This document shows, piece by piece, positions 255 to 12,875 of a DNA stretch of 32,000 nt. The stretch spans positions 270,001 through 302,000 of the forward strand of contig SHMX01000001.1 in assembly GCA_008080745.1 (NCBI GenBank), given 5' to 3'. Each line of letters opens with the position of its first letter. The first letter of the stretch is position 1. The notes under the pieces are model-generated. The model was not told the DNA's origin and searched no databases. It worked only from the letters and a program-made list of their open reading frames with translations. The translations under genes were made by a program, and so were the position numbers. The DNA comes from Candidatus Thorarchaeota archaeon (lineage in GTDB: Archaea; Asgardarchaeota; Thorarchaeia; Thorarchaeales; Thorarchaeaceae).

Positions 255-1607
255 CTATTCGGTTATAGCATGGGCTTGTAGAGCAATACGGGGTTTTAGT
301 TCACGGATAGAAATTCCAGTTTCTTTCGCGACTTTGAGTACATCATCTGCTTCGGGTTTGATATTGATAATGCTTCCATCAAGTGCTCGGGATACCTTCA
401 CACGCACCATGAATTCTTTATCATCAATCTCTAGTTTACAGACAATTGTTTCACGTACCGCCTTCAAACGTTCCCAATTGGTATATCGAATTCCAATGGT
501 ACCTAAATGCCGGATAAGAATCTCTGCAATAGTCTTCAAACCTGATTTGGGAGCAATAACCTTGACAACAAAACAGGGCCGATTCTTCTTCCCAAAGGCA
601 GGAATGACTACAACATCGTAGGCTAGGCCTTCAGATAGTAAAAGGTCAAATACGCTTCCGATTGCCTCACCATCGGTATCATCGACATTTGTTTCGATTA
701 CAATTACTTCGTCTGCGTTCCATCCCTCTTGCATCTTCTTTCGTTCCTCTGCTTGTTCACTTGTTGTAGGAGTTGTAGGTTCTTTTGTTTCTATGGCGGT
801 AGGTGTTGAAGGTTCTGTCTTTTGTGCTTCTTTGGTTGTTGATTCTTCAAACTCAGCTTCTCCGATAATAATTCGCATTACATTTGGAATATCAAGTTCT
901 CGAATGCCAAAGCCAGCACCTTGGTTCATAGGTATAAAACCCTCTGCAGATTCGACAAATACGTCTGCTAATGTGACTAAGATTGCAGCACCAGTAGGTG
1001 TTAGGACTTCTGTATGGGCATCCCCTGGGTGAAAAGGCACATCGTGAGCTAGAAGAATCTCCTTAACAGCAGGTACAGGAACATCAAGCAATCCGTGTTC
1101 GGTCTGGATAGTTCCATTTCCTACAGCTGCTTTCGTGGAGTAAAATGTTGTGTCGTCCAATAAATCTGCAGATTGAAGCAGATATGCGGTCCCCACCAAG
1201 TCAAGAACAGTATCAATAGAACCAGTTTCATGAAGGTGTAACTTGTCAATAGGAACTTCATGAGCTCGACTCTCAGCTTGCAGAATCTCATTAAAGGCAT
1301 TTGATGCGAATTCCAGAGCCTTTTTCGATAGTTCAAGTTCTTCTGCGACTTCCTTGATAACCCGTTGCATCGAGGATGGAGAGAATCTTACAGATTGATC
1401 ATGGGAAACCTCAAGATGACAACCAGTATTGGTACCTGAACTACGAGGGACTGTCTTTACTCGCAGTGTGGGATCGTATATCAAAAGACTAGCAGCAACA
1501 GGGAGAAGGTTGTCTTCCTCACCTATCAGGTCAACCAATGCAGCTAGAAACATATCCCCAGAGGCCCCAGCAGTAGAAACATCGATTAGAACATGTTTTT
1601 TACTCAA
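255..1607 (-). CDS. larC: LarC-family nickel-pincer cofactor nickel insertase (LarC1+LarC2 fused)
   Basis: Motifs AGASGDMFLAAL, HLHETGSIDTVLDLVG, HGLLDVPVPAV, TPTGAAIL, IETNVDD, GKKNRP and KPEADD. Start moved from the ORF-track 1694 to TTG at 1607 (MSKKHVLID), just before the family N-terminal motif. Confidence 0.85.
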   Translation of the reverse strand: MSKKHVLIDVSTAGASGDMFLAALVDLIGEEDNLLPVAASLLIYDPTLRVKTVPRSSGTNTGCHLEVSHDQSVRFSPSSMQRVIKEVAEELELSKKALEFASNAFNEILQAESRAHEVPIDKLHLHETGSIDTVLDLVGTAYLLQSADLLDDTTFYSTKAAVGNGTIQTEHGLLDVPVPAVKEILLAHDVPFHPGDAHTEVLTPTGAAILVTLADVFVESAEGFIPMNQGAGFGIRELDIPNVMRIIIGEAEFEESTTKEAQKTEPSTPTAIETKEPTTPTTSEQAEERKKMQEGWNADEVIVIETNVDDTDGEAIGSVFDLLLSEGLAYDVVVIPAFGKKNRPCFVVKVIAPKSGLKTIAEILIRHLGTIGIRYTNWERLKAVRETIVCKLEIDDKEFMVRVKVSRALDGSIINIKPEADDVLKVAKETGISIRELKPRIALQAHAITE

Positions 1608-1755
1608 TCTAATTATTCTCCTAGTTGTGGGTCTGCAAACTGAGCAGGTATTCCTACCTTTTCTTTCTTTTGAGGACGAGTTCTCAGAAAGCACGCCATA
1701 TTGAAGGTGAAGGCTGTCTTAAATAACGTTGTGTAAATGAACTCTGAGCACTTGT

Positions 1756-2538
1756 TCAATCTTTCTTTCCTTTACGTCTCCATTGGTCAAATATTGCCAT
1801 ATACATACATTCAGTGGGACTAATCCACATTTCTGAAGAGTCGTATGATTGGTCTGAGAGTTCTACGGGTGCATTTCGAATCAGTGCAGCAGGAATTGAT
1901 TCGTCCGATTCACCCATGACGGCTGTACAGGCGGAGGCCAAATTATCCGCTATAGCCCTTCTTGTTATTCGCATTTCATTACCAAAGAGGTCCTTTCTCC
2001 CACGATCATCAGCAACAGGTTTGAAGCCAGCTACTCCAAGAGCCATACCAATATTACCCAATCGAAGAGGTTGTGTTCGACTATCGATAATAAGAATTCC
2101 AATCTTCAAGCCTAATCGGTCTTTAATTTGTTTTCTTAGGCGTTCTGCACTGGCTCTCGAATCTTTTGGTAGTAGTGATGCATATCCAACAGGAATATTG
2201 GATTTGTCGACACCAGCATTAGCCATTAGAGTATTATTCTTGATGGTGAGCATCACATGAGGGATTCCTCCCAGAATCTCGTCAGCCTCATCGAGTACAA
2301 GCTGGGCAACCTCGGGAATTATGGTATAACGCTCGCCTAATTCTTGAGCCTTCGATGAAACCTCGATATCTGACAGTTTGACTATTTGACCTTCAGTTGT
2401 ACCAAGAGGAGTTTCCGCAATACCGATGATATCACCGTTTTCAAGTTTGAATCCGGACTGTTCAATTCCTTCCAATAGAACTTCAATAATATCATCATCA
2501 GGAGAGATAATACGTGTCTTAATCGGGATAACGAACAT
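1756..2538 (-). CDS. cofE: CofE-family gamma-glutamyl ligase (coenzyme F420-0:L-glutamate ligase-like)
   Basis: Motifs IPIKTRII..DD, LENGDIIGIAE, MANAGVDKSN, IIDSRTQPLRLG, D.RGRKDLFG, AIADNLASA and VMGESDESIPAALIR. ATG at 2538 follows AGGTG. Confidence 0.85.
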   Translation of the reverse strand: MFVIPIKTRIISPDDDIIEVLLEGIEQSGFKLENGDIIGIAETPLGTTEGQIVKLSDIEVSSKAQELGERYTIIPEVAQLVLDEADEILGGIPHVMLTIKNNTLMANAGVDKSNIPVGYASLLPKDSRASAERLRKQIKDRLGLKIGILIIDSRTQPLRLGNIGMALGVAGFKPVADDRGRKDLFGNEMRITRRAIADNLASACTAVMGESDESIPAALIRNAPVELSDQSYDSSEMWISPTECMYMAIFDQWRRKGKKD

Positions 2539-2591
2539 GTGATGCACCTAAGGAGAAGCAATATAATCTCAAAATAAAATATACCATTGTT

Positions 2592-4007
2592 CTATGATTT
2601 CTTCCCTTTTTGTAATCTAGCTCGTTCAGACATGATACAACGGTCACCCTTTCGTCCACCCATTGGTTCATGTGGAGTTCCCATAGAATTCATACATCTA
2701 GCAGCAACAGCCGCACCCATTGCAAGTCCATCCTCAACAAACACAACAGGATTTTTCTGAACCCAGAGAGATCCATCAGCCAGATGCAGATTCTCTGCAA
2801 TAAGAAGTGGTTTTCCTGCAGAAGTAATCGCCCTACCGGTCAGTCCCAATGAAGTATTCTCAAGAATAAGATCACTCTCTTGAGCCACTGTAAGAATTCG
2901 TTGAAGAACCCGAAGTTGGACATAGTCGATGATTGTTAGAAGACCTTTTGCACCAGACTCCTGAAAGATAGCTCCACCAATTCCCTCTAAATCAGATAAT
3001 TTAGAGCCATTCTTTCCAGCATCCACACCAATCAGTACAACCCCACCTTCATCCGCAGCAGTGGGATTTACAGGAACTGTACCAAACCTGCTAGTCCCTT
3101 TTTGTATAGTTTGAACACGGATCAGTCGACTGATTTCTTCAACCCATTCCAAATTGATAGGAGCCGAGAAGGCTTGGGACGAGGCATGAAGGTCCAATGT
3201 GCATCCAAATCTGGAATCAACCTGACCACTTCCTCTGACTAGGGCATCAGGGATAGCGCCTGCTAACCCAGCAAACGAACCTATTGTCTTTGCATAGGGG
3301 TAGGAATCATTAGTTACCCTTCCGGCTAATGTAGTACCAAAATCTAGAGTCATAACAGGATTTCTGAAGTCAACTTGAGTACCCTTTGCTGCCCCCTTGA
3401 TGCCTGCAGTTACAAGCTCTCCTTCCATCTCGTTTGCGACAATTCCAGTTTCTTCAGGAGGTAGACAGCTTGCAATTGCCCCATCGAAATGAACCTTTTT
3501 CAACCAGCTAAAATCTCGAATGCCAGGAGGGAGCTTGTCAGGGTTCATAGTGGCCATCATTCTTTGAGGGGGAATTCCAGCTTTCAAACAACCATCAGCC
3601 AAAGCCTTGATGATACCATGAACTTCTTTGGGACTACCAAAACTTGCAGTCACACCGGTTGAACGAACAACAAAATGAACATCTTTTTCTCGGTTCAGTC
3701 TTGATTTCATAAGTACAGCATCTAATATGTCTGAGATGAATTCAACAACCGCTTCGTGTGTCAATTCCACACCTACAACTGTGTTTCCAAATACCTCCTC
3801 AGTGGGATGTGGTGGACGAATATTTCTTGTATGTCGCACTTCTTTAGCAATCTGATATAGAATACCCGTTTTCAGATTGGTAGTCATAAGAATACATTTG
3901 GTTGTAGTATTTCCAAGTTCTACTGAAATGACTGTGTAAAATGGACCCATCTTTAATGATGTTGTACCGATAGCTTGTGGCCAAATCGAATAGAAATTGT
4001 TACCCAA
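2592..4007 (-). CDS. Methanogenesis marker 14 (DUF2114)-like protein, ASKHA fold, diol-dehydratase-reactivase-like
   Basis: SVELGNTTTKCIL (phosphate-1-like), HFVVRSTGVTA, VANEMEGEL..AGIK, TLDFGTTLAG (phosphate-2-like) and VEDGLAMGAAVAARCMNS. TTG start 9 nt after the mtrH stop with SD GAGGTG. Confidence 0.8.
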   Translation of the reverse strand: MGNNFYSIWPQAIGTTSLKMGPFYTVISVELGNTTTKCILMTTNLKTGILYQIAKEVRHTRNIRPPHPTEEVFGNTVVGVELTHEAVVEFISDILDAVLMKSRLNREKDVHFVVRSTGVTASFGSPKEVHGIIKALADGCLKAGIPPQRMMATMNPDKLPPGIRDFSWLKKVHFDGAIASCLPPEETGIVANEMEGELVTAGIKGAAKGTQVDFRNPVMTLDFGTTLAGRVTNDSYPYAKTIGSFAGLAGAIPDALVRGSGQVDSRFGCTLDLHASSQAFSAPINLEWVEEISRLIRVQTIQKGTSRFGTVPVNPTAADEGGVVLIGVDAGKNGSKLSDLEGIGGAIFQESGAKGLLTIIDYVQLRVLQRILTVAQESDLILENTSLGLTGRAITSAGKPLLIAENLHLADGSLWVQKNPVVFVEDGLAMGAAVAARCMNSMGTPHEPMGGRKGDRCIMSERARLQKGKKS

Positions 4008-4016
4008 ACTGACACC

Positions 4017-4952
4017 TCAAACAAGTTTTCTAAAGGGATGATCCTCAGATGGTTCGATTCCGAATTCCATCTTTGCAGATTCTGCTGCAAACACATCAGC
4101 CATAGCAACTACAGGAAACACTCTATCAGCGTTACTGATGGGGCCATATAGAACATAATCCGCTCCCAGCATTTGCACAATAAGATTAGAGGCTATATCA
4201 CAGGTCTGATATGCCAGTTTATTCTCTTTCTTGAGTTTCCGTAACCAGGTCCATGATGATGGGGCGTTATGAATCCCTGAACCAGTAGGATATCCGTAAA
4301 CCGTCTTAGCAACAAATGTGAATGATGCTGATGAGCCTGCTCCAGCACCCATGGCAGTAGTTGCTGTATCTAACAGCGGTTTTGAAATCCCTATTCTTTT
4401 TGCAAGTGAGAGTAATCCCTCTTTGAGACCACCACCTCCCTCGTCCAAGATTGCTCGGCGTCCAGCTATGGAGGGATCTTGAGGGTTAAAGACAAGAACT
4501 ATTGCACAGCTGTGCTTCATATCCATAAGAGCCTGAATCTCCTCAGAAGTGACAGATACATTGATTGAATTGTATATTGCTCTATCTAACAGCCCTATTT
4601 CTTCTGCATGTTGCATTCCTGCAATCCGTACAGAAGCATCTGCTGAATCAATGATAATTGGAGAATCAGAAATATCAGTTACAAAATCGATATATTTTTT
4701 CATAGCAATAGCAGACTCGGCAAATATCTGGATTATCGCGGGATTTCCAGTACGGTGGGCCATAGTATCCTGTTGAAGAATAAGGTCTTCTGCAACCTTC
4801 TCATCGAATATACCCTGTTTAGCATCCCTTACTATTTTGTCTCCACTATAGAATATTGTTCCAGCAAGTGCTGTTGGATTCTCACCGAGATTCCCCCCGA
4901 TTTTGATTCCACCAACATCGTAGATGAATTGTTCTTTCTCAAATACAAACAT
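4017..4952 (-). CDS. mtrH: MtrH/MtxH-family methyl-pterin:corrinoid methyltransferase
   Basis: MFVFEKEQ...KIGGNLGENPTALAGTIFY, IIIDSAD, IYNSIN, LLDTA, GSGIHNAPSSW and GADYVLYGPI. ATG directly abuts the mtrA stop (TAAATG). Confidence 0.9.
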   Translation of the reverse strand: MFVFEKEQFIYDVGGIKIGGNLGENPTALAGTIFYSGDKIVRDAKQGIFDEKVAEDLILQQDTMAHRTGNPAIIQIFAESAIAMKKYIDFVTDISDSPIIIDSADASVRIAGMQHAEEIGLLDRAIYNSINVSVTSEEIQALMDMKHSCAIVLVFNPQDPSIAGRRAILDEGGGGLKEGLLSLAKRIGISKPLLDTATTAMGAGAGSSASFTFVAKTVYGYPTGSGIHNAPSSWTWLRKLKKENKLAYQTCDIASNLIVQMLGADYVLYGPISNADRVFPVVAMADVFAAESAKMEFGIEPSEDHPFRKLV

Positions 4953-5639
4953 TTAGTTCAACTCCTTTGCAACCAGGATAGTTCCAGACTCTGATTCCCG
5001 AATCTCCACACCCACGCGGCTTGGATGGGTAGATGCTATAACAAGAGGATTAGAACCCCCAATCTGGGACGTAAAAGGCTCTAATTCAAGATCATATTCC
5101 GGTATTAGTGCGATGCTTCCCCGCATCTCTTGAGCTCGTTTCTTTGCTGAATCTCCCTTGAACTCGACCCATATTGGTTGATCGGGATATGATTCGGTTT
5201 CAATTGAACGAAGCTCCTCTACTTTAGCTGCGATTATATCTGGATTGGATGTATTCATCATGTCTATGAATTCTACCTGATTGCGGAATCGTTCCACAGC
5301 TTCTAAAGGTACATTTTCGATATAGGGAATAGCTCCGGGAGCATCGATTATCTTCCTGGTATCAGCATCGATTCCGTGTTTATGTAAACATCTCATACTA
5401 GAGCCAGTCAAATGGCCCGGGACTTCTGGTCCTGCCAATATGAAGAACCGTATATTGGTGTTAGATACAACGTTCACAATTACTCGTTCAATACCAATAT
5501 TCTCGGTCTTACATGTGCCAATAATACAATAGTCTGCATCCACCTCAATCTTCTTCCCAAGTGTGCAGATAGCAATTGACCCATCTGGGACTTTTACTTC
5601 AAAATCACCGGGTACGGGAGGCCATATTTTTTCAGACAT
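4953..5639 (-). CDS. mtrA: Soluble MtrA/MtxA-family corrinoid protein with a non-membrane C-terminal extension
   Basis: WPPVPGDF, AICTLG, GTCKTENIGIERVIVNVVSNTNIRFFILAGPEVPGH (cobalt-ligand His), GAIPYIEN and VERFRNQVE. No C-terminal hydrophobic helix. ATG at 5639 follows GGAGGTG. Confidence 0.9.
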   Translation of the reverse strand: MSEKIWPPVPGDFEVKVPDGSIAICTLGKKIEVDADYCIIGTCKTENIGIERVIVNVVSNTNIRFFILAGPEVPGHLTGSSMRCLHKHGIDADTRKIIDAPGAIPYIENVPLEAVERFRNQVEFIDMMNTSNPDIIAAKVEELRSIETESYPDQPIWVEFKGDSAKKRAQEMRGSIALIPEYDLELEPFTSQIGGSNPLVIASTHPSRVGVEIRESESGTILVAKELN

Positions 5640-5651
5640 TAATAGCACCTC

Positions 5652-6569
5652 CTAATCAATTGTGCGCGGTTCGAACAGACTTCGTTCAATCCCCAAAGCC
5701 CGATTTGCCTCGGCAGTTGCAGCAGCGATAGCATTTCCTATCAAAGCAACTGCAACAAATACTTCCTTAGTTCGAATCATGGATCCGTACATGATGCAAT
5801 CTGTTGCAAATAATTGAGATGCAACAGTTGAAGCAACTACAGCTGAAAGGTGAGTCGATTCATCATCAAATCCTTCCTTTTTCAATAACTTCCATGCAGA
5901 GGGAGCATTATGAGGACCAAGACAAGTGGGCAGTCCCAGCTCGGATTTGATTGCAAGCATAGTCCTATTCTCTAACCCATAACCTGCTCCAACGGGCATA
6001 GTTGCCGGGTCAACAACCATCTTTGTAATACCCATACCCTCAGCATCCTCAATCATCGATTCAATAGTCGTCATTCTATCGGGGAGGGTAGTTGCCCTTG
6101 GAGACCATCCTAAAACTACAGCCATGTTCAACTTACTTGCTGAAAGAAGGTCTTTCTCCGCGTCCTTCATTGACAAATTGATCGAATTGTAGATTGCTCT
6201 ATCCTCAAGACCCTGTTCCTCACAGTACTGAATAGCGAATTTTCTTGCCTTTGCGCTGGTTGATTCGAACATGAAGGGGCCTTCGTAGTTCTCGGCCAGC
6301 CAGCTAATGTGATTTTCCATAGCAGTGGGTGTTCTTCCATAGGCTTGGATAATGAGTGGATGGCCGGTTTCTTTGGTCTGTGAAACTCCTGTTTCAATCC
6401 ATTCCCTTGTTAATCTCTTATCAAAACGACCTTCTTTGGTACTTTCAACAATGGGTTGTCCCTTGAAAAAAAGGCCACCTATTAGAACGGTGGGATTTTG
6501 TCCTGGCTGACCACCAATTTTTACCCCACCAAAATCGAAGACTTGTTGTTCTTTTTTGAATACAAACAT
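5652..6569 (-). CDS. Second, divergent MtrH-family methyltransferase paralogue (MtrH')
   Basis: MFVFKKEQ...KIGGQPGQNPTVLIGGLFF, FMFESTS, IYNSIN, VVDPA, GPHNAPSAW and DCIMYG are colinear with the 4017-4952 protein. SD GAGGTG overlaps the metF stop. Confidence 0.8.
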   Translation of the reverse strand: MFVFKKEQQVFDFGGVKIGGQPGQNPTVLIGGLFFKGQPIVESTKEGRFDKRLTREWIETGVSQTKETGHPLIIQAYGRTPTAMENHISWLAENYEGPFMFESTSAKARKFAIQYCEEQGLEDRAIYNSINLSMKDAEKDLLSASKLNMAVVLGWSPRATTLPDRMTTIESMIEDAEGMGITKMVVDPATMPVGAGYGLENRTMLAIKSELGLPTCLGPHNAPSAWKLLKKEGFDDESTHLSAVVASTVASQLFATDCIMYGSMIRTKEVFVAVALIGNAIAAATAEANRALGIERSLFEPRTID

Positions 6570-6578
6570 GTAGACACC

Positions 6579-7499
6579 TCACCTCGGTCGTGGTAAAAGA
6601 CCCGACCGTTTTACTATCTCAGGAAGACTCTCTTCCCATCCGACCGCCATGATATGAATTCCATCAATACCAGGAAGTTCTCGGACCTGCTCGATTGTTT
6701 CAACAGCAATGTTCAGACCCTCTGCTCGAATAGCAGTCCTCTTATCAAGGCCGGCTAATCCATTTCCTGCCATCTCCAACCTATGAATCATTGTGTCTGG
6801 TATCTTAAACCCAGGTATTCTTTGATTCATGAAAAGAGCCATTTTTGGCCCCTTCAGAGGGATTATTCCAGCAATTATTTTGATATCTTCAACTGGAATA
6901 TGACTCAGGAATTTTTCAAAGCGCGGAATGTCATAGATAGCTTGGGTCTGGAAGAATTGTGCTCCTGCTTGTTTTTTCTTTGAAACACGCATTGCCTGTA
7001 AGGGCATTGGATCCGCATAGGGATTGAACGTGGATCCAAGAAAGAATTGTGGCGTACCCTCTAAATCAGCACCTGCAAGATCTTTCCCGCTCATAAGATG
7101 TTTTGCCAATTGAAGTGCTTGAATTGAGTCAATATCATAGACCATCTTGGTCTTTGGGTGAGAGCCGAGGAGGGTATGGTCACCCGTAATGAATAGTACA
7201 TTTTCGAGCCCGAGTGCATGAGCCCCATATAATTCGCTTTGAAAGAGTACTCTATTTCGATCTCTAGCTGACATCTGAATGATGGGTTCAATACCCGCAT
7301 TAAGTAAAATATGCCCGCAGACCATGCTGCTCATCGATGGAATCCCCCGTACATTGTCTGTGATGTTTATTGCATCACAATAATCCCTGATAATGGATGC
7401 TCGCTGTGTCACCAGACTTGCATCAGCTCCATGAGGTGGAGTTATCTCTCCAGTGACTACAAACTTCTCTTCCTCAAGTAATTGATCAAGCCGTGACAG
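6579..7499 (-). CDS. metF: Methylenetetrahydrofolate reductase catalytic subunit (MetF), probable CTG start
   Basis: DAINITDN, EPIIQMSARDRNR, LFITGDH and KKKQAGAQFFQTQAIYD. The frame extends upstream of the ORF-track start (7412) through SRLDQLLEEEKFVVTGEITPPHG to an in-frame TAA at 7521-7523. The only plausible start is CTG at 7499, 9 nt after AGGAG. Confidence 0.85.
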   Translation of the reverse strand: MSRLDQLLEEEKFVVTGEITPPHGADASLVTQRASIIRDYCDAINITDNVRGIPSMSSMVCGHILLNAGIEPIIQMSARDRNRVLFQSELYGAHALGLENVLFITGDHTLLGSHPKTKMVYDIDSIQALQLAKHLMSGKDLAGADLEGTPQFFLGSTFNPYADPMPLQAMRVSKKKQAGAQFFQTQAIYDIPRFEKFLSHIPVEDIKIIAGIIPLKGPKMALFMNQRIPGFKIPDTMIHRLEMAGNGLAGLDKRTAIRAEGLNIAVETIEQVRELPGIDGIHIMAVGWEESLPEIVKRSGLLPRPR

Positions 7500-7610: not shown

Positions 7611-9947
7611 CTATCTATTTCTAATTATTGCTCCTCCAAATACAACAATCACCACTAGTGATCCCATCAAAATCAACATATTGATGCTTTCCATTGAAAG
7701 GAGGGGTGCTGTACCAGTTACCTCGACAAACACAGTGTCATAGCTAGATAGACCCGATTCGTCAAAAAGCTCCAGAGTGAAATTATACGTTCCAGGAAAC
7801 AAACCATCCACATTCTTGGATATGTTTGTACCATCCCACGATCCCTCTTCGATAACTGTGCCATTTTGATATATCCTGTAACTTGAAGGCGTAGAATCAC
7901 CACACACCCATGTAATAGTATTACCAGTGGTACCATATTCATAGGAAATATCATCGGGAAGAGTAATAGAAGGTGGTAAATTAGATTTAACATGAACCAT
8001 TACAGAATGCGTGGAGATTTGACCATAAAAACTAGATAACATAATAGTGTAGTTATAAGTGCCAATAGATAAGCTATCCAAGTCAATAACCACATCACTT
8101 CCATCCCAAATTTGCGATGCAATAATACTATCATTCCTAATGATCAAGTACATCATCGGATAGGGATCACTACAAGTCCAGGTTAGCTTATTCCCCGTTG
8201 TTCCTTCCTCAATAAAGACATTATCCGGCCCACTCACACTTGGTGGATCTAATGCTAGTTTCCGAGGATTCTTCCAATAGAGAGGATTCTGAGTTAGTTC
8301 AGTAAACTCACCAGCTATGTATTCGCTTACTATAAATGGACCAGATGTCACAAAGAATGTTTCAGCCGGGTCAGTCGGATCAGGATTCCATTCGTTCCAT
8401 GCTGGAAAATTGGGATCATTGAAAATATGTTTAGGAACGATAGGTTTCGTTGCTATAGTACTAAGATGCCAATAGGATACACTATTGAATTCAACTACTA
8501 GTGTGTATGGGTTCTTAGCATATGCAGCCACCATGTCAGTCAAATCAATACCGTATGGATTGCCAGAAGAATCACGATAGTAATTTAAAGTAAAGGCTGC
8601 ATCTGATGCAGTGATTGGAAGTCCGTCACTCCAAGAAGCGTTTTGAATCATATTAAAAGTGAATCGAGTATGGTTCTCTGGTATCTCTGGGTAATCATCA
8701 TGGGTCGCGGCTATATAATTTTCACAAAGCCAACTAACAAGATTCCCATCTTCACCAATTCGGAATAATGAGTCCCATAACATATCGTTAATCTTTGCTG
8801 TGTAAGTAGATGAACTAGCCATAAAATTGAAGGTATCAACATCAAGTGGATTGCTTCTACGGAATATTCCACCGATTTTGGGTCCGACAGATTCTTTTCT
8901 ATGGACCTTGTAGTTTGTCCAAAAACCCGGGACTTCTTCACTAGCATCGTTCACATAACCCTCGAACACATCGGTTCGATAGGCGGATAGGAGAATGTTC
9001 TCATAACATACAATTATGGGACATTCATAGACAAAGATTCTCTGCATTTCAATAGCAGCTTCGTATACATCCTCATATTGAACACTATGGAGAAGTTGAT
9101 CTCTCCAGCTATCATATGATGCATTCCTGAAGTTGGGGAAGTTCCAGTATGGCGCATCGGCGTATTCAGACCAGTACTCGTAAGCAAGCCAATCAACATC
9201 GAAGTCGTTGAAACTTGAACCCATGAAGACTATGTCATAGTCCTCGTGGAAATATAACCTGTTCAAGTACTCGTAGAAGTCTGTTGGTACGGAGGTTGCA
9301 TCGATGTTCAGAGCCACTAGAGCCTCTTCGACCTTCTGACCGACTCCAACAGCAATATTAGACGATTGAGCAACTTCAATAAGAACATCAAAGTCATCGC
9401 CGTTTGGTGCTTCTAACAAACCGTCATCATCGACATCAACAAAACCTGCATCAGCAAGTAGTTGAACACCCTCTGCAATATGACCCTCATAGTAATTGTA
9501 AGGCAATTGTCCCTCAATAGAGAACGGATTGACCACTGGCACACACGAGTCCTGTGGTTGTGAGAGGCCATCCCATACATCGTCAGAGATTGCCTCTTTG
9601 TCTAACGCAAAGGCAAGGGCTCTTCGGAACGCGGTAATGTTGAATGGGTATTTGTCACAGTTGATCGTGACGTATCCGTATCCGTTCCTGAGTACATTGG
9701 CGACCTCGATATCATCAGCCTCTTCCAACTGTGGAAGGAAGCTGGGATCAATCATATCACCTATCAGGTCGATATCGTTTTCCTGTAAAGCTAGAATTTG
9801 TGCATCGTCTCCCTGAATAACATTAAAGACTATTTTATCTACGTTTGGACCAAGATATTGTTCCGAACTAGTTGATGATACAAAGGGAATGAAACCCCCA
9901 ATAAATAAGGAAGAACACAACAAGATAACTAGAAACTTATTTCTCAT
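7611..9947 (-). CDS. Family 5 (OppA/DppA-like) solute-binding protein, circularly permuted, with two Ig-like repeats and a C-terminal membrane anchor
   Basis: Signal peptide, FRRALAFALDKEAI, WSDGLPITASDAAFT and TSGPF..EY..GEFTEL..NP.YW. Two GxTGN.(L/I)TW...D..P..Y.I..N repeats, then a hydrophobic tail ending RNR. Confidence 0.85.
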   Translation of the reverse strand: MRNKFLVILLCSSLFIGGFIPFVSSTSSEQYLGPNVDKIVFNVIQGDDAQILALQENDIDLIGDMIDPSFLPQLEEADDIEVANVLRNGYGYVTINCDKYPFNITAFRRALAFALDKEAISDDVWDGLSQPQDSCVPVVNPFSIEGQLPYNYYEGHIAEGVQLLADAGFVDVDDDGLLEAPNGDDFDVLIEVAQSSNIAVGVGQKVEEALVALNIDATSVPTDFYEYLNRLYFHEDYDIVFMGSSFNDFDVDWLAYEYWSEYADAPYWNFPNFRNASYDSWRDQLLHSVQYEDVYEAAIEMQRIFVYECPIIVCYENILLSAYRTDVFEGYVNDASEEVPGFWTNYKVHRKESVGPKIGGIFRRSNPLDVDTFNFMASSSTYTAKINDMLWDSLFRIGEDGNLVSWLCENYIAATHDDYPEIPENHTRFTFNMIQNASWSDGLPITASDAAFTLNYYRDSSGNPYGIDLTDMVAAYAKNPYTLVVEFNSVSYWHLSTIATKPIVPKHIFNDPNFPAWNEWNPDPTDPAETFFVTSGPFIVSEYIAGEFTELTQNPLYWKNPRKLALDPPSVSGPDNVFIEEGTTGNKLTWTCSDPYPMMYLIIRNDSIIASQIWDGSDVVIDLDSLSIGTYNYTIMLSSFYGQISTHSVMVHVKSNLPPSITLPDDISYEYGTTGNTITWVCGDSTPSSYRIYQNGTVIEEGSWDGTNISKNVDGLFPGTYNFTLELFDESGLSSYDTVFVEVTGTAPLLSMESINMLILMGSLVVIVVFGGAIIRNR
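9055..9176. repeat. Copy 1 of an intragenic direct repeat shared by the two solute-binding protein genes
   Basis: 9055-9153 is identical to 11230-11328 (99/99). 9055-9176 matches 11230-11351 at 121 of 122 positions, read base by base. Confidence 0.95.
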
Positions 9948-9991
9948 GTTTAGCCCTCACAATATGCGTATCAATAAATAACCTCGATAAT

Positions 9992-9999
9992 AATATAAA
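9992..9999 (-). promoter_or_regulatory. Putative TATA box of the 7611-9947 gene
   Basis: TTTATATT on the minus strand about 45 nt upstream of ATG 9947, with GAGGG just before the ATG. Confidence 0.35.
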
Positions 10000-10055
10000 C
10001 TATTCTCTATTCCTTTTAACAATAATTTACTTGCCATCATCGAGTACACATGCAC

Positions 10056-12125
10056 CTAATGATTCTTTATGATGGCTGAACCAAAAGCTGCAATTACCAC
10101 AAGTGAGCTTATTGTTATGGCCATACTTAGACTAAATACTGGGATATTTAGCAAATCGTTTCTCCTGATGTGGACTAATACATCATCACTTGTTGATGAT
10201 CCAAACCGAGTGGAAAGAATCAATGTGTAGTTGTATGTTCCATAAGAAAGCGAATCGAGACTGATGGAAACGTTAGTACCCTCTAAAACACCAGAGTCAA
10301 TTAAACTGCCATCCCGTAGAATAGAATATTCACAGGGAACAGAACAACTGCAATTCCAAGTTAGCATTTTTCCTACTGTGCCTTCTGAAATGTATACATC
10401 ATCCTGCCGTTCAATATAGGGATTATCATCGCCAGTAACAGAGCTGCTACGATAATACGAGTTGTAAGTTAATTCAGCAAACTCACCTGGTACAAAATCA
10501 TTAACAATGAAGGGGCCTGATGAAACAAAATACGGTTCATTGGGATCCGTTGGATCAGGATTCCATTCATTCCACGCTGGAAAATCAGGTTCAATAAAGA
10601 TGTGTTTAGGAATAATCGGTTTCAATGCTACTGCTGTTAGATGCCAGTATGATTCGGACTTGAATTCCACAACCATTTCACTAGGAGTTATAGAATATGC
10701 AGACATAATATCAGCAATATCTGCACCAAGAGGATTCCCTGGTGCATTTCGATAATAGTTTAGCGAAAAGGCAACATCGTCTGCGGTAAGGGGACGACCA
10801 TCAGACCAAACTAAATCATCCCGCATTTGAAAGATGATACGTGTATGCTCATCCGGCACCTTTCTATTATCAGCATGGGTTTCAATATTATAAGATTCGG
10901 CTAACCAATGAATATAGTTGCCATCCGGGTCCATCCGGAGTAACGAGTCCCACATCATCTGATTCACAGTGTTGGCAAAGGAAGAAATCGAGGTCATGAA
11001 ATTAAATGTGTCAATATCAAAGGGAAGACTCCATCGGAGGTTACCTCCATAGGGTCCGCCTGCTGCATCTTTCAATCTGACCTGATAATTAGTCCACCAG
11101 TTTGGAACACCATCATTCACATCATTTACAAAACCTACAAACCTATCGGTCCTATATGCAGAGAGAAGTACATTTTCGTAGCAAACTATAATTGGACACT
11201 CATAGACAAAGATTTTCTGCATCTCAATTGCAGCTTCGTATACATCCTCATATTGAACACTATGGAGAAGTTGATCTCTCCAGCTATCATATGATGCATT
11301 CCTGAAGTTGGGGAAGTTCCAGTATGGCTCATCGGCGTATTCAGACCAGTATTCATAAGCCAGCCAATCGACCGAATACTCGGAAAAGCTTGTGCTCATG
11401 TAAACAATATCATAATCACCATGATGATATAGACGGCACAAGTAATCGTAGAAATAGGCACCTTTAGCTACGGCATCTATTCCAATACTTCTCATGGTTT
11501 CAGCAAAGAGTTCTCCTGTCCTTTCTGCAATACCTGACGATTGAGCGAGCTCGACTAGCACGTCGAAATCAGACCCATCGGGTGCCTCCCTAGAACCATC
11601 TTCATCAATATCAAAAAATCCTGCTGCATCTAATAGTGCATTGGCTTTTGCAAGATTACCCTCATAGTAGGTATAGGGTAATTGTCCTTCGATTGAAAAA
11701 GGATTGACCACTGGCACACAGGAGTCCTGAGGTTGCGCAAGACCACTCCATATGTCATCACAGATTGCTTCTTTATCCAAAGCAAAGGCGAGAGCTCGAC
11801 GAAAAGCAGTGATATTAAACGGGTATTTATCACAGTTGATCGAGAAATATCCATATCCATTTCGAAGTACATTAGCAATCTCAATATCCTCAGATTCCTC
11901 CAGTTGAGGTAGAAAAGAGGGGTCAATCATATCACCAACGAGGTCGATTTCATTATCCAATAGAGCAAGGACCTGGGCGTTATCTCCCGTTATGACTTTG
12001 TATGTTATTTTATCAACATAAGGCCCATAGTATTGCATGGATGAATTAGCTGGAGCCAATAAAGGAATAGCACTTAGCATTAATACCAAACAACTACCAT
12101 ATACAATAGTATTTCGTAGCCGCAT
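10056..12125 (-). CDS. Paralogous family 5 solute-binding protein, circularly permuted, with one Ig-like repeat and a C-terminal anchor
   Basis: Colinear with 7611-9947 (NCDKYPFNITAFRRALAFALDKEAI; YWNFPNFRNASYDSWRDQLLH). Start moved to ATG 12125 (MRLRNTIVYG signal peptide, preceded by AGAGGG). Confidence 0.85.
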   Translation of the reverse strand: MRLRNTIVYGSCLVLMLSAIPLLAPANSSMQYYGPYVDKITYKVITGDNAQVLALLDNEIDLVGDMIDPSFLPQLEESEDIEIANVLRNGYGYFSINCDKYPFNITAFRRALAFALDKEAICDDIWSGLAQPQDSCVPVVNPFSIEGQLPYTYYEGNLAKANALLDAAGFFDIDEDGSREAPDGSDFDVLVELAQSSGIAERTGELFAETMRSIGIDAVAKGAYFYDYLCRLYHHGDYDIVYMSTSFSEYSVDWLAYEYWSEYADEPYWNFPNFRNASYDSWRDQLLHSVQYEDVYEAAIEMQKIFVYECPIIVCYENVLLSAYRTDRFVGFVNDVNDGVPNWWTNYQVRLKDAAGGPYGGNLRWSLPFDIDTFNFMTSISSFANTVNQMMWDSLLRMDPDGNYIHWLAESYNIETHADNRKVPDEHTRIIFQMRDDLVWSDGRPLTADDVAFSLNYYRNAPGNPLGADIADIMSAYSITPSEMVVEFKSESYWHLTAVALKPIIPKHIFIEPDFPAWNEWNPDPTDPNEPYFVSSGPFIVNDFVPGEFAELTYNSYYRSSSVTGDDNPYIERQDDVYISEGTVGKMLTWNCSCSVPCEYSILRDGSLIDSGVLEGTNVSISLDSLSYGTYNYTLILSTRFGSSTSDDVLVHIRRNDLLNIPVFSLSMAITISSLVVIAAFGSAIIKNH
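11230..11351. repeat. Copy 2 of the intragenic direct repeat
   Basis: Matches 9055-9176 at 121/122 positions. The single mismatch (9154 G vs 11329 T) changes Ala to Glu. Confidence 0.95.
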
Positions 12126-12224
12126 TTCAAGCCCTCTGGATCTTTTTATGATAATCATATTATCTTTTGTGAAAATATAGATAATACTTGTTGTTCACGA
12201 ACCTACACATCGAAGAAGTTCAGA

Positions 12225-12875
12225 TTAGTTGTGGTGAATAGAATGAGGGCCTTTTGCCTGACTCCAGTCTCGAGATTCCCAGATTTTCTCAATATTTTCT
12301 AGTTTTCCAAGTTCCTTTAATCGCTCATAAATAAGATGCCAAGCACAATCGGTATCGGGGTCTCTTTCACACTTTCCATCCATCGAACCACCACAGGGCC
12401 CATTCATTATACCCTTGGAACAGCGTGTAATTGGACAAATCCCACCTGTGAGATGAAGGACACAATCGCCACACAAAGCACACTTCTCCTCATGATGAAA
12501 TCTTTGGGGCATATCTCCAAGAAACTTTGAGTCAGTTGCAGGGAATGATTGAAGATTGGGTAAGAAATTCGTTAACGTCTGAGTTGCAACGCCACATGCT
12601 TGAACCAATACTGCATCTGCTTTGCTTAGTTCCATCCGATGTTTTTCAAGCTCTTCCTTTAATGCACGGTGGTCACATATACCACCCTCAACCAGAATCT
12701 TTGCTAGGACCTTTTTTCCTCTATCCACAAGGAGATCCTCCATATCTTCAAGTTGAAGCCATCCACCCACATCACACATCTGAGCACAGCCAGTATCACC
12801 AAAGAGAACAATATTCTGATGACCTTCTAACATCTTGAGAATAATTTCAGGGGATTTTAGTTCCATGACTATCAT
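12225..12875 (-). CDS. metV: MetV-type Zn/Fe-S small subunit of methylenetetrahydrofolate reductase (MTHFR C-terminal domain family)
   Basis: GCAQMCDVGG, ACGVATQ, CALCGDCVLHLTGGICPITRCSKGIMNGPCGGSMDGKCE and DCAWHLIYERLK. ATG follows GTGGTG. Confidence 0.85.
   Translation of the reverse strand: MIVMELKSPEIILKMLEGHQNIVLFGDTGCAQMCDVGGWLQLEDMEDLLVDRGKKVLAKILVEGGICDHRALKEELEKHRMELSKADAVLVQACGVATQTLTNFLPNLQSFPATDSKFLGDMPQRFHHEEKCALCGDCVLHLTGGICPITRCSKGIMNGPCGGSMDGKCERDPDTDCAWHLIYERLKELGKLENIEKIWESRDWSQAKGPHSIHHN

Follow-up and report, generated by a model that had tools for sequence, protein, structure and literature searches.

In the energy-conserving Mtr complex of methanogens, the cobamide domain of MtrA commutes between MtrH and the membrane subunits MtrCDE, as described in the accessible text of a preprint (bioRxiv 10.64898/2026.07.03.736320). 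In Methanosarcina mazei, MtrH forms a homodimer with active sites pointing in opposite directions; MtrB binds to this dimer by its N-terminal strand, with a salt bridge between Glu9 of MtrB and Arg211 of MtrH, and only the proximal MtrH protomer is thought to engage MtrA (PMC12774963). Soluble MtrAH pairs are scattered across non-methanogenic archaea and bacteria, and for a decade their function has been a matter of guesswork, as it has in the literature on Bathyarchaeia, other Asgard lineages and Methanomassiliicoccales; MtxXAH of Methanosarcina, unexplained since 1997, was still uncharacterised in 2026. In Thorarchaeia, a remnant consisting of MtrAH and m26 (methanogenesis marker 14, DUF2114) has been published, and the accessible text of that paper ties m26 to Mtr by distribution, phylogeny and synteny, a Thorarchaeia clade included (Adam et al. 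2022, PMC9635834). Here we describe an operon of the same lineage in a window of 32,000 nucleotides (nt), by which we mean the whole stretch analysed (positions 270,001 to 302,000 of contig SHMX01000001.1, assembly GCA_008080745.1, Candidatus Thorarchaeota archaeon). It encodes a MetF-like reductase, a diverged MtrH-family methyltransferase (MtrH'), an MtrA without membrane anchor, a canonical-type MtrH and DUF2114. The operon is real and conserved, and its gene set is partly published; we tentatively read it as a membrane-free descendant of Mtr that would work as a self-contained corrinoid methyl relay, its two barrels joining two methyl-pterin pools, and put the probability of this reading at about two in five. 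In the literature compared, we did not find the obligatory link to MetF, the unique pocket of MtrH', the putative tether resembling MtrB and the Arg of MtrH' that would pair with it, or the independence from acetyl-CoA synthase.

The five genes all lie on the minus strand, with successive gaps of 9, 12, 0 and 9 nt, and the bases of the first three junctions, read directly, revealed a GGAG-type Shine-Dalgarno site at each. The TGA of metF is followed after 9 nt by the ATG of MtrH', with the site GAGGTGAGGTG; the TAG of MtrH' is followed after 12 nt by the ATG of MtrA, with the site TAGGAGGTG; and the TAA of MtrA abuts the ATG of MtrH, with GGAG 9 nt upstream. An earlier sequence-only reading of this DNA had proposed these four co-oriented genes and their gaps, an anchorless mtrA, a second, distinct MtrH paralogue and the lack of mtrCDE and mcr in the window, all of which our analyses upheld. 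The extent that it gave to the feature, sensible at the metF start (7499), was one gene short at the other end, where DUF2114 starts 9 nt after mtrH and is kept in synteny in 31 loci; its view of the operon as uncharacterised holds for the biochemistry but not for the gene set, given the Thorarchaeia MtrAH and m26 already reported in the accessible part of PMC9635834. Downstream of DUF2114 are genes for CofE and then for a LarC-like protein, both on the minus strand. The synteny survey showed the same order and strand, namely HflX, (MetV), (solute-binding protein), MetF, MtrH', MtrA, MtrH, DUF2114, CofE and LarC, in nearly all of the 40 Thorarchaeia loci that were long enough, from about 40 species, and the arrangement is therefore not due to chance.

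The source assembly (3.16 Mb, 19 contigs, 98% complete, class Thorarchaeia) gave no match genome-wide to MtrE (PF04206) or MtrD (PF04207), with MtrB, MtrC, MtrF and MtrG not searched singly, and none to McrA, so that no complete membrane mtr cluster lies elsewhere in the genome. Profile searches of the whole genome returned one MtrA only and, for MtrH, only the two genes of this locus. Contigs C14, C15, C17, C18 and C19 have a G+C content of 62-65% in a genome of 41% and are probably mis-binned. Three MtbC-like B12-binding proteins, the only corrinoid proteins of the MtbC type in the genome, map to C17 and C18 and were regarded as contaminants because of this composition; once the contaminant contigs are removed, MtrA is the sole methyltransferase-type corrinoid carrier. 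A further B12-binding protein, on contig C1, was rejected as a methyltransferase corrinoid protein, being a likely sensor next to a histidine kinase: at C1:471525-473784 (L048:1526-3784), a globin-like N-terminus and B12-binding domains are encoded directly upstream of the kinase gene, and the two proteins may represent a cobalamin-based sensor pair. The genome keeps only the soluble, vitamin B12-dependent parts of the methyl-transfer pump of methanogens.

The distribution of the relevant genes was counted in 87 species genomes of the class Thorarchaeia, representing 17 genera. The MtrH family is present in 84 genomes, usually in two or more copies, and methylenetetrahydrofolate reductase (MTHFR) in 75, with one copy each, which lies within this cluster wherever coordinates were compared. 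Mch was found in 81 genomes and all 17 genera, Ftr in 62 genomes, the acetyl-CoA synthase CdhC in 41 (5/17 genera, those lacking it including the genus of the source genome), Mer, over the cut-off, in 34, and beta-RFAP synthase (TIGR00144), a marker of tetrahydromethanopterin (H4MPT) biosynthesis, in one. This distribution shows that the module is a class-wide, strongly conserved unit and that it occurs independently of the carbonyl branch, of Mer and of Ftr. The counts bear on a view, which we regard as very unlikely here, that MtrAH funnels methyl groups from methylated substrates or methyl-coenzyme M (CoM) by way of methyl-H4MPT to acetyl-CoA synthase. Such a role, in supplying or draining the Wood-Ljungdahl pathway, has been proposed for non-methanogen MtrAH (PMC9723677, PMC8407382, and the accessible text of PMC9635834), and the third MtrH copy that many Thorarchaeia have elsewhere in the genome would suit it, but the source genome and 12/17 genera lack CdhC and yet keep the module. 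Nor, once the contaminant contigs were removed, did the source genome contain a substrate-specific methyltransferase I (MT-I) or a corrinoid protein of the MtbC type, and no MtrE-type CoM site is encoded. On genomic distribution, feeding of acetyl-CoA synthase is untenable as the general function.

In MtrA, the His of the PGH motif, encoded at 5412-5414 in the cobamide loop, is invariant in 28/28 aligned sequences, and the literature gives this conserved His as the cobalt-side ligand. MtrA has no C-terminal hydrophobic helix, its last 65 residues forming instead a polar, soluble extension that is conserved in relatives. Within this tail we found a motif, LIPEYDLELEPFTSQI, whose class consensus is LLPE[YF]G[VI]x[LYF][DEN]Px[ST]SL[VI], with the Pro and Glu invariant in 26/26 sequences, and which aligns to residues 4-21 of Methanosarcina barkeri MtrB, VRIAPELNLVMDPETGTI. 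Since the pairwise E-value is 0.07, the likeness is weak on its own, and a Pfam scan of the tail alone returned nothing, MtrB included; together, the short pairwise alignment and the motif conservation hint at a resemblance of the tail to the peptide by which MtrB docks on MtrH. The residue equivalent to Arg211 is invariant in 120/120 MtrH' sequences (Arg202 in MtrH'), and is Ala, Ser or Gly in 33/33 MtrH of Thorarchaeia. Canonical MtrH, which branches with other canonical MtrH proteins in a 105-row tree, retains T32, Q75, D103, N129, D196, H229 and N230, as well as the basic WLRKLKK patch, when aligned to M. mazei MtrH (9qtp). These residues are numbered as in M. mazei MtrH, and the pterin site is taken as described for that protein and for MtgA in PMC12774963, where the basic patch is proposed to contact the tail of H4MPT. 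A complex prediction for MtrA with MtrH' scored 0.05, which gives no verdict and was used neither for nor against any reading.

In the relay that we propose, MtrH and MtrH' would form a heterodimer, much as MtrH homodimerises in Mtr, and the MtrB-like peptide in the tail of MtrA would tether the carrier to it, with Arg202, invariant in MtrH', as the point of contact. The cobamide domain could then swing between two opposed active sites, MtrH' filling the place that MtrCDE holds in methanogens. The same features may be read differently, although we consider it unlikely: MetF, MtrH and MtrH' may share a single one-carbon (C1) carrier, with a sub-functionalised heterodimer loading MtrA for an external acceptor, so that one protomer would be catalytic and the other would mainly bind the MtrA tether. 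The engagement of MtrA by only the proximal protomer of the MtrH homodimer, as thought for M. mazei (PMC12774963), and the retention of the tether-binding Arg in MtrH' only both favour a division of labour of this kind, but the polar pocket residues of MtrH' are invariant in 120 clusters, which would be unexpected for a purely structural protomer.

MtrH' is a conserved, functional-looking paralogue and not a decaying copy. Within Thorarchaeia its mean identity is 73%, versus 66% for MtrH, with 93 versus 75 invariant columns. Its nearest homologues, 69-88% identical to it, fall into over 120 sequence clusters, which belong to Candidatus Thorarchaeota wherever the source names them, and among 1.8 billion representative proteins there is a single 50%-identity cluster for MtrH', after which the score falls from 494 to 185 bits; MtrH' is thus a Thorarchaeia-specific clade. 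In the 105-row tree it stands on a long branch (stem of 1.25 substitutions per site), outside the bacterial clade and inside a 34-row archaeal clade (96 in the SH-like approximate likelihood-ratio test, SH-aLRT) that also contains MtrH of Methanosarcina and Methanosphaera, MtrH of Thorarchaeia and Mtx-type proteins. Because constraining MtrH' together with Thorarchaeia MtrH gave a slightly better likelihood and their monophyly was not rejected (p = 0.53 in the approximately unbiased test, p-AU), the simplest history would be a gene duplication in this lineage, after which change was fast. MtrH' retains Q75, N129, D196, H229 and N230, its polar ligand-binding residues being invariant across the 120 clusters, and has lost most of the basic WLRKLKK patch; T32G, D103E and G225C are invariant throughout its clade, in comparison with about 100 other family representatives, of which 90 have Asp103 and 97 Gly225. 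The site appears to be a functional ligand pocket that has acquired a specificity of its own, and does not look like a copy of the folate pocket of MtgA. Natural fusions of MtrH-family proteins were also observed, including MtrH-URO-D (P0241, 662 amino acids [aa]), MtrH-B12-binding (530 aa) and MtrA-MtrH (516 and 544 aa), the proteins concerned being P0241, P0136, P0202 and P0267, which shows that coupling of such a barrel to a carrier or a second methyltransferase is routine in the family.

The source genome encodes folate-type enzymes (Fhs, FolD, GcvT, FTCD and MetF) as well as H4MPT-type enzymes (Ftr, Mch and Mer), and a DHPS-like/MptE pair is present. Genome-wide searches found no CdhC, no MetE (PF01717), no homocysteine S-methyltransferase domain (PF02574; MetH/BHMT) and no AcsE-type protein. 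A pterin-to-pterin shuttle is plausible in this genome, and its best support is the pathway hole, since no other known consumer of either methyl-pterin was found among those searched; if Mer and MetF use their usual cofactors, MtrH and MtrH' would therefore be the only possible partners of each methyl-pterin. We propose that MtrH exchanges methyl groups with the H4MPT-type methyl-pterin produced by Mer, and that MtrH' would do so with the methyl-pterin of the co-operonic MetF, most simply methyl-tetrahydrofolate, so that the module would join two methyl-pterin pools without another outlet in the source genome. The exchange between pterins suggested by the sequence-only reading is supported by the encoded enzyme sets and the missing outlets, whereas the second pool is not shown and the MtrH' pocket matches neither type of carrier; we put the chances of such a shuttle at roughly one in three. 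The fully specified version, in which MtrH and MtrH' act on H4MPT-type and folate-type carriers, respectively, methyl groups pass over MtrA in soluble pterin-to-pterin transfer, and DUF2114 serves as an ATP-dependent activase of MtrA, has about the same chances in our estimate.

The absence of MetE and PF02574 genome-wide also means that no known methionine synthase is recognisable, and bears on another, rather improbable, explanation, namely a split cobalamin-dependent methionine synthase. In it, MetF would supply the methyl-pterin, MtrH would load MtrA, and homocysteine would be the acceptor in a step carried out by MtrH' or an unlinked enzyme, with DUF2114 as the counterpart of the reactivation domain of MetH. 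The lack of the homocysteine S-methyltransferase domain, and hence of MetH or BHMT, would fit, as would the presence of S-adenosylhomocysteine hydrolase (C11:17746-18990), the place of metF among the methionine-pathway genes of bacteria, and the occurrence of the module throughout the class independently of Wood-Ljungdahl genes, as expected of a housekeeping function. Archaeal MetE, moreover, accepts methyl groups from methylcobalamin. In termite Bathyarchaeia, a corrinoid protein-MtrH pair is found beside a metE homologue (PMC7886697). The source genome, however, has no MetE-like acceptor enzyme, and Thorarchaeia, inferred to be peptide degraders, may import methionine. All homocysteine methyltransferases known to us use zinc, but MtrH' has no conserved ligand set of the zinc type: a zinc site, as needed by a thiol methyltransferase, was looked for and rejected, since only three of its Cys and His residues (C216, H220 and H87) are invariant, whereas C258 varies.

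Several results weigh against a relay joining two pterin pools. On TIGR01114, the MtrH equivalog model with a curated cut-off of 271.4 bits, MtrH lies above and MtrH' below the cut-off (scores in Table 1); on NF047990, the model for the MtgA type (cut-off 550 bits), MtrH' scores only 156 bits and MtrH 206 bits. This score and the tree, in which MtrH' nests in the archaeal MtrH clade, led us to reject MtrH' as an imported MtgA/CmuB-like folate enzyme, a likeness drawn in the sequence-only reading. MtrH' is no closer to MtgA, a known MtrH-family methylcorrinoid:tetrahydrofolate methyltransferase (PDB 6SJ8/6SK4), than to MtrH. In addition, D103E and G225C occur in no other sampled representative, neither of the H4MPT type nor of other clades, so that MtrH' may bind something other than folate or H4MPT. 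Beta-RFAP synthase is missing in 86/87 genomes, so that the H4MPT pool follows only from Ftr, Mch and Mer and a second pterin pool is not demonstrated; either H4MPT is made by an unrecognised route or taken up, or Ftr and Mch use another carrier. Mer is missing in 53/87 genomes that keep the module. MetF has been proposed to replace Mer as methylene-H4MPT reductase in ANME-1 archaea, and because many Thorarchaeia genomes have MetF without Mer, MetF might, by analogy, have this role in them, with everything running on one pterin. One complete chromosome (G010) has MtrH' without any MetF. By our estimate from standard potentials, methyl transfer from folate to H4MPT is about 35 kJ/mol uphill, so that, of the two directions of exchange originally envisaged, only that from the H4MPT-type carrier to folate would be open to an uncoupled relay. 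As for the proposed activase, RACo (Foldseek, TM score 0.36) and the HgdC-type activators among the ASKHA matches of DUF2114 speak for it, but Foldseek and VIA-align showed DUF2114 to be not specifically close to RACo among ASKHA proteins. The module also cannot be defined as a link between the two methyl branches of the Wood-Ljungdahl pathway, as first suggested, because the source genome and 12/17 genera lack acetyl-CoA synthase.

Some of these points fit the sharing of a single pterin better, in particular the class-wide absence of the RFAP synthase marker (1/87) and the absence of Mer from most genomes having MetF and the module. A methylcobamide methyltransferase encoded elsewhere, for example the URO-D family protein at C2:569.8 kb, would then take the methyl group from MtrA and pass it to a thiol or another small molecule; the source genome has one gene of the URO-D family, and the MtrH-URO-D fusion P0241 exists among relatives, but the gene lies in an unrelated neighbourhood. 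Mer and MetF, moreover, coexist in the source genome, and this speaks for a difference between them in substrate or role.

For the relay between two pools, DUF2114 may provide the means of keeping the carrier active. Its AlphaFold2 model (predicted local distance difference test [pLDDT] 83, predicted template modelling score [pTM] 0.86) has an ASKHA fold and matches AnmK, CoaX, Kae1/TsaD, FtsA and HgdC/benzoyl-CoA-reductase activators at Z 15-18; no iron-sulfur domain was recognised in it. The fold fits, but does not prove, a role as a candidate ATP-dependent helper of the MtrA cobamide, in which ATP spent by DUF2114 would maintain the cobamide as active Co(I) or allow a damaged cofactor to be exchanged. 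The C-terminal 35 residues contain an invariant RCMNSxGT...P.GG..G..C motif with C438 and C457, and C140 is invariant too; the Cys motif may represent a metal site, in a region where the confidence of the model is low. A full-text literature search on the term DUF2114 returned no paper.

The coordinates of the locus and its neighbours are collected in Table 1. The metF frame contains no ATG, GTG or TTG before 7412, and reading it from 7493 gives a match to positions 1-287 of the MTHFR profile (PF02219); the conserved strand FVVTGEITPP is present, with no canonical start codon ahead of it. As a CTG at 7499 comes 7 nt after GGAGAG, the end of the feature at 7499 is sensible, and the start codon seems to be CTG. 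In about 27/42 Thorarchaeia loci an in-frame CTG occurs at the homologous spot, 7-9 nt after GGAG and with no canonical start nearby, and a few others have an ATG, GTG or TTG at or beside this spot. MetF is the sole MTHFR gene of the source genome by profile search. In about half of the relatives (loci L004, L005, L010, L013, L014, L017, L018, L020-22, L029, L030 and L035), a MetV-like gene directly adjoins MetF. In the window, two paralogous genes for family-5 solute-binding proteins (778 and 700 aa; 7611-12158, minus strand) sit between metV and metF, versus none or one at this site in relatives.

Table 1. Genes and motif of the MetF-MtrH'-MtrA-MtrH-DUF2114 locus and its neighbours (positions within the window)
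Feature	Position	Strand	Basis
MetF-like methylene-tetrahydropterin reductase	6579..7499	-	306 aa if the start is CTG 7499; PF02219, 99-109 bits
MtrH', diverged MtrH-family TIM-barrel methyltransferase	5652..6569	-	305 aa; PF02007, 240 bits; TIGR01114, 236.5 bits
Anchorless MtrA corrinoid protein	4953..5639	-	228 aa from ATG 5639; PF04208, 178 bits
Putative MtrB-like docking motif in MtrA tail, LIPEYDLELEPFTSQI	5061..5114	-	Motif conservation and weak alignment to MtrB
Canonical-type MtrH	4017..4952	-	311 aa; PF02007, 388 bits; TIGR01114, 399.5 bits
Methanogenesis marker 14/DUF2114 (m26)	2592..4007	-	471 aa; TIGR03285, 577 bits
CofE-type gamma-glutamyl ligase, conserved neighbour	1756..2547	-	TIGR01916, 191 bits, above cut-off; synteny
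LarC-like nickel-insertion protein, conserved neighbour	255..1694	-	PF01969 and TIGR00299; synteny
MetV-like MetF partner (DUF5981 C-terminal domain)	12225..12875	-	PF12225, 119 bits

The distribution described above corrects a common assumption, in that the module is independent of the carbonyl branch of the Wood-Ljungdahl pathway, which is absent in most genera of Thorarchaeia. If the proposed relay were true, the H4MPT-type and folate-type C1 routes would form one linear pathway in Thorarchaeia free of acetyl-CoA synthase, a pathway that could end in substrate-level formation of ATP by formate-tetrahydrofolate ligase, and the ATP-dependent activase of MtrA, long sought, would be found in DUF2114. 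The locus also makes a tractable system for studying the role of such remnants, the upkeep of active Mtr cobamide and the direct movement of methyl groups between C1 carriers.

Compared with the energy-conserving complex MtrABCDEFGH, the Thorarchaeia module shares an MtrA cobamide domain with the conserved His, an MtrH that passes the equivalog model, the DUF2114/m26 companion and a peptide that appears to resemble the MtrB strand docking on the MtrH dimer. It differs in that the genome has no matches to MtrD or MtrE, no MtrA anchor, no CoM site of MtrE and no Mcr, in the remodelled MtrH' next to MtrA, and in the presence of MetF in the operon; as it has neither membrane subunits nor a membrane anchor, it would not pump Na+. 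The MtrAH and m26 remnant described for Thorarchaeia involves the same genes in the same lineage, and canonical MtrA and MtrH are indeed syntenic with DUF2114 here. In its accessible text, however, metF does not occur, and neither the second MtrH paralogue, nor the MtrA tail, nor the persistence of the module without acetyl-CoA synthase is mentioned (PMC9635834).

MtxXAH of Methanosarcinales likewise combines an anchorless, soluble MtrA homologue with an adjacent MtrH homologue, and in two loci (L042 and L044) the pair adjoins metV-metF and other folate genes. It is unlike the present module in having one MtrH-type gene, MtxX, no adjacent DUF2114, a short MtxA tail without the PE[YF]G motif, and a host that also has the full Mtr. 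In these two loci, from metagenome-assembled genomes of Methanosarcinales (L042:1845-12057, and L044), the genes on one strand are a 271-aa open reading frame (ORF), mtxA, mtxH, a 354-aa ORF and purN, followed on the same strand by glyA, folD, a gene for a 407-aa folP-like pterin-binding protein, metV and metF; the 271-aa and 354-aa ORFs had no Pfam match. The position of mtxA-mtxH beside a folate cluster hints, independently of the Thorarchaeia operon, that soluble MtrAH homologues are linked to MetVF.

Three-component corrinoid methyltransferase systems, such as MtgABC of Desulfitobacterium, offer a parallel in organisation, with an MT-I, a corrinoid protein, a methyltransferase II (MT-II) and an ATP-dependent activase, the pterin half-reaction being that of a barrel of the MtrH fold. 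Here, by contrast, both methyltransferases are of the MtrH fold, two different genes flanking the single carrier gene mtrA, the carrier is of the MtrA type and not of the MtbC/B12-binding type, the candidate activase is DUF2114 and not RamA or RACo, and MtrH' fails the MtgA model (156 vs 550 bits). MetVF of acetogens and MetF of ANME-1 are similar in that a short MetF has a MetV-like partner, but in Thorarchaeia MetF lies within a corrinoid methyltransferase operon, and in the source genome it occurs alongside Mer. As 53/87 genomes have no Mer, MetF is the sole candidate for methylene-pterin reduction in many Thorarchaeia. Among the soluble versions of MtrAH, that of Thorarchaeia stands out as the most complete and the best conserved, comprising five small cytoplasmic proteins, with one carrier, two barrels and DUF2114 among them.

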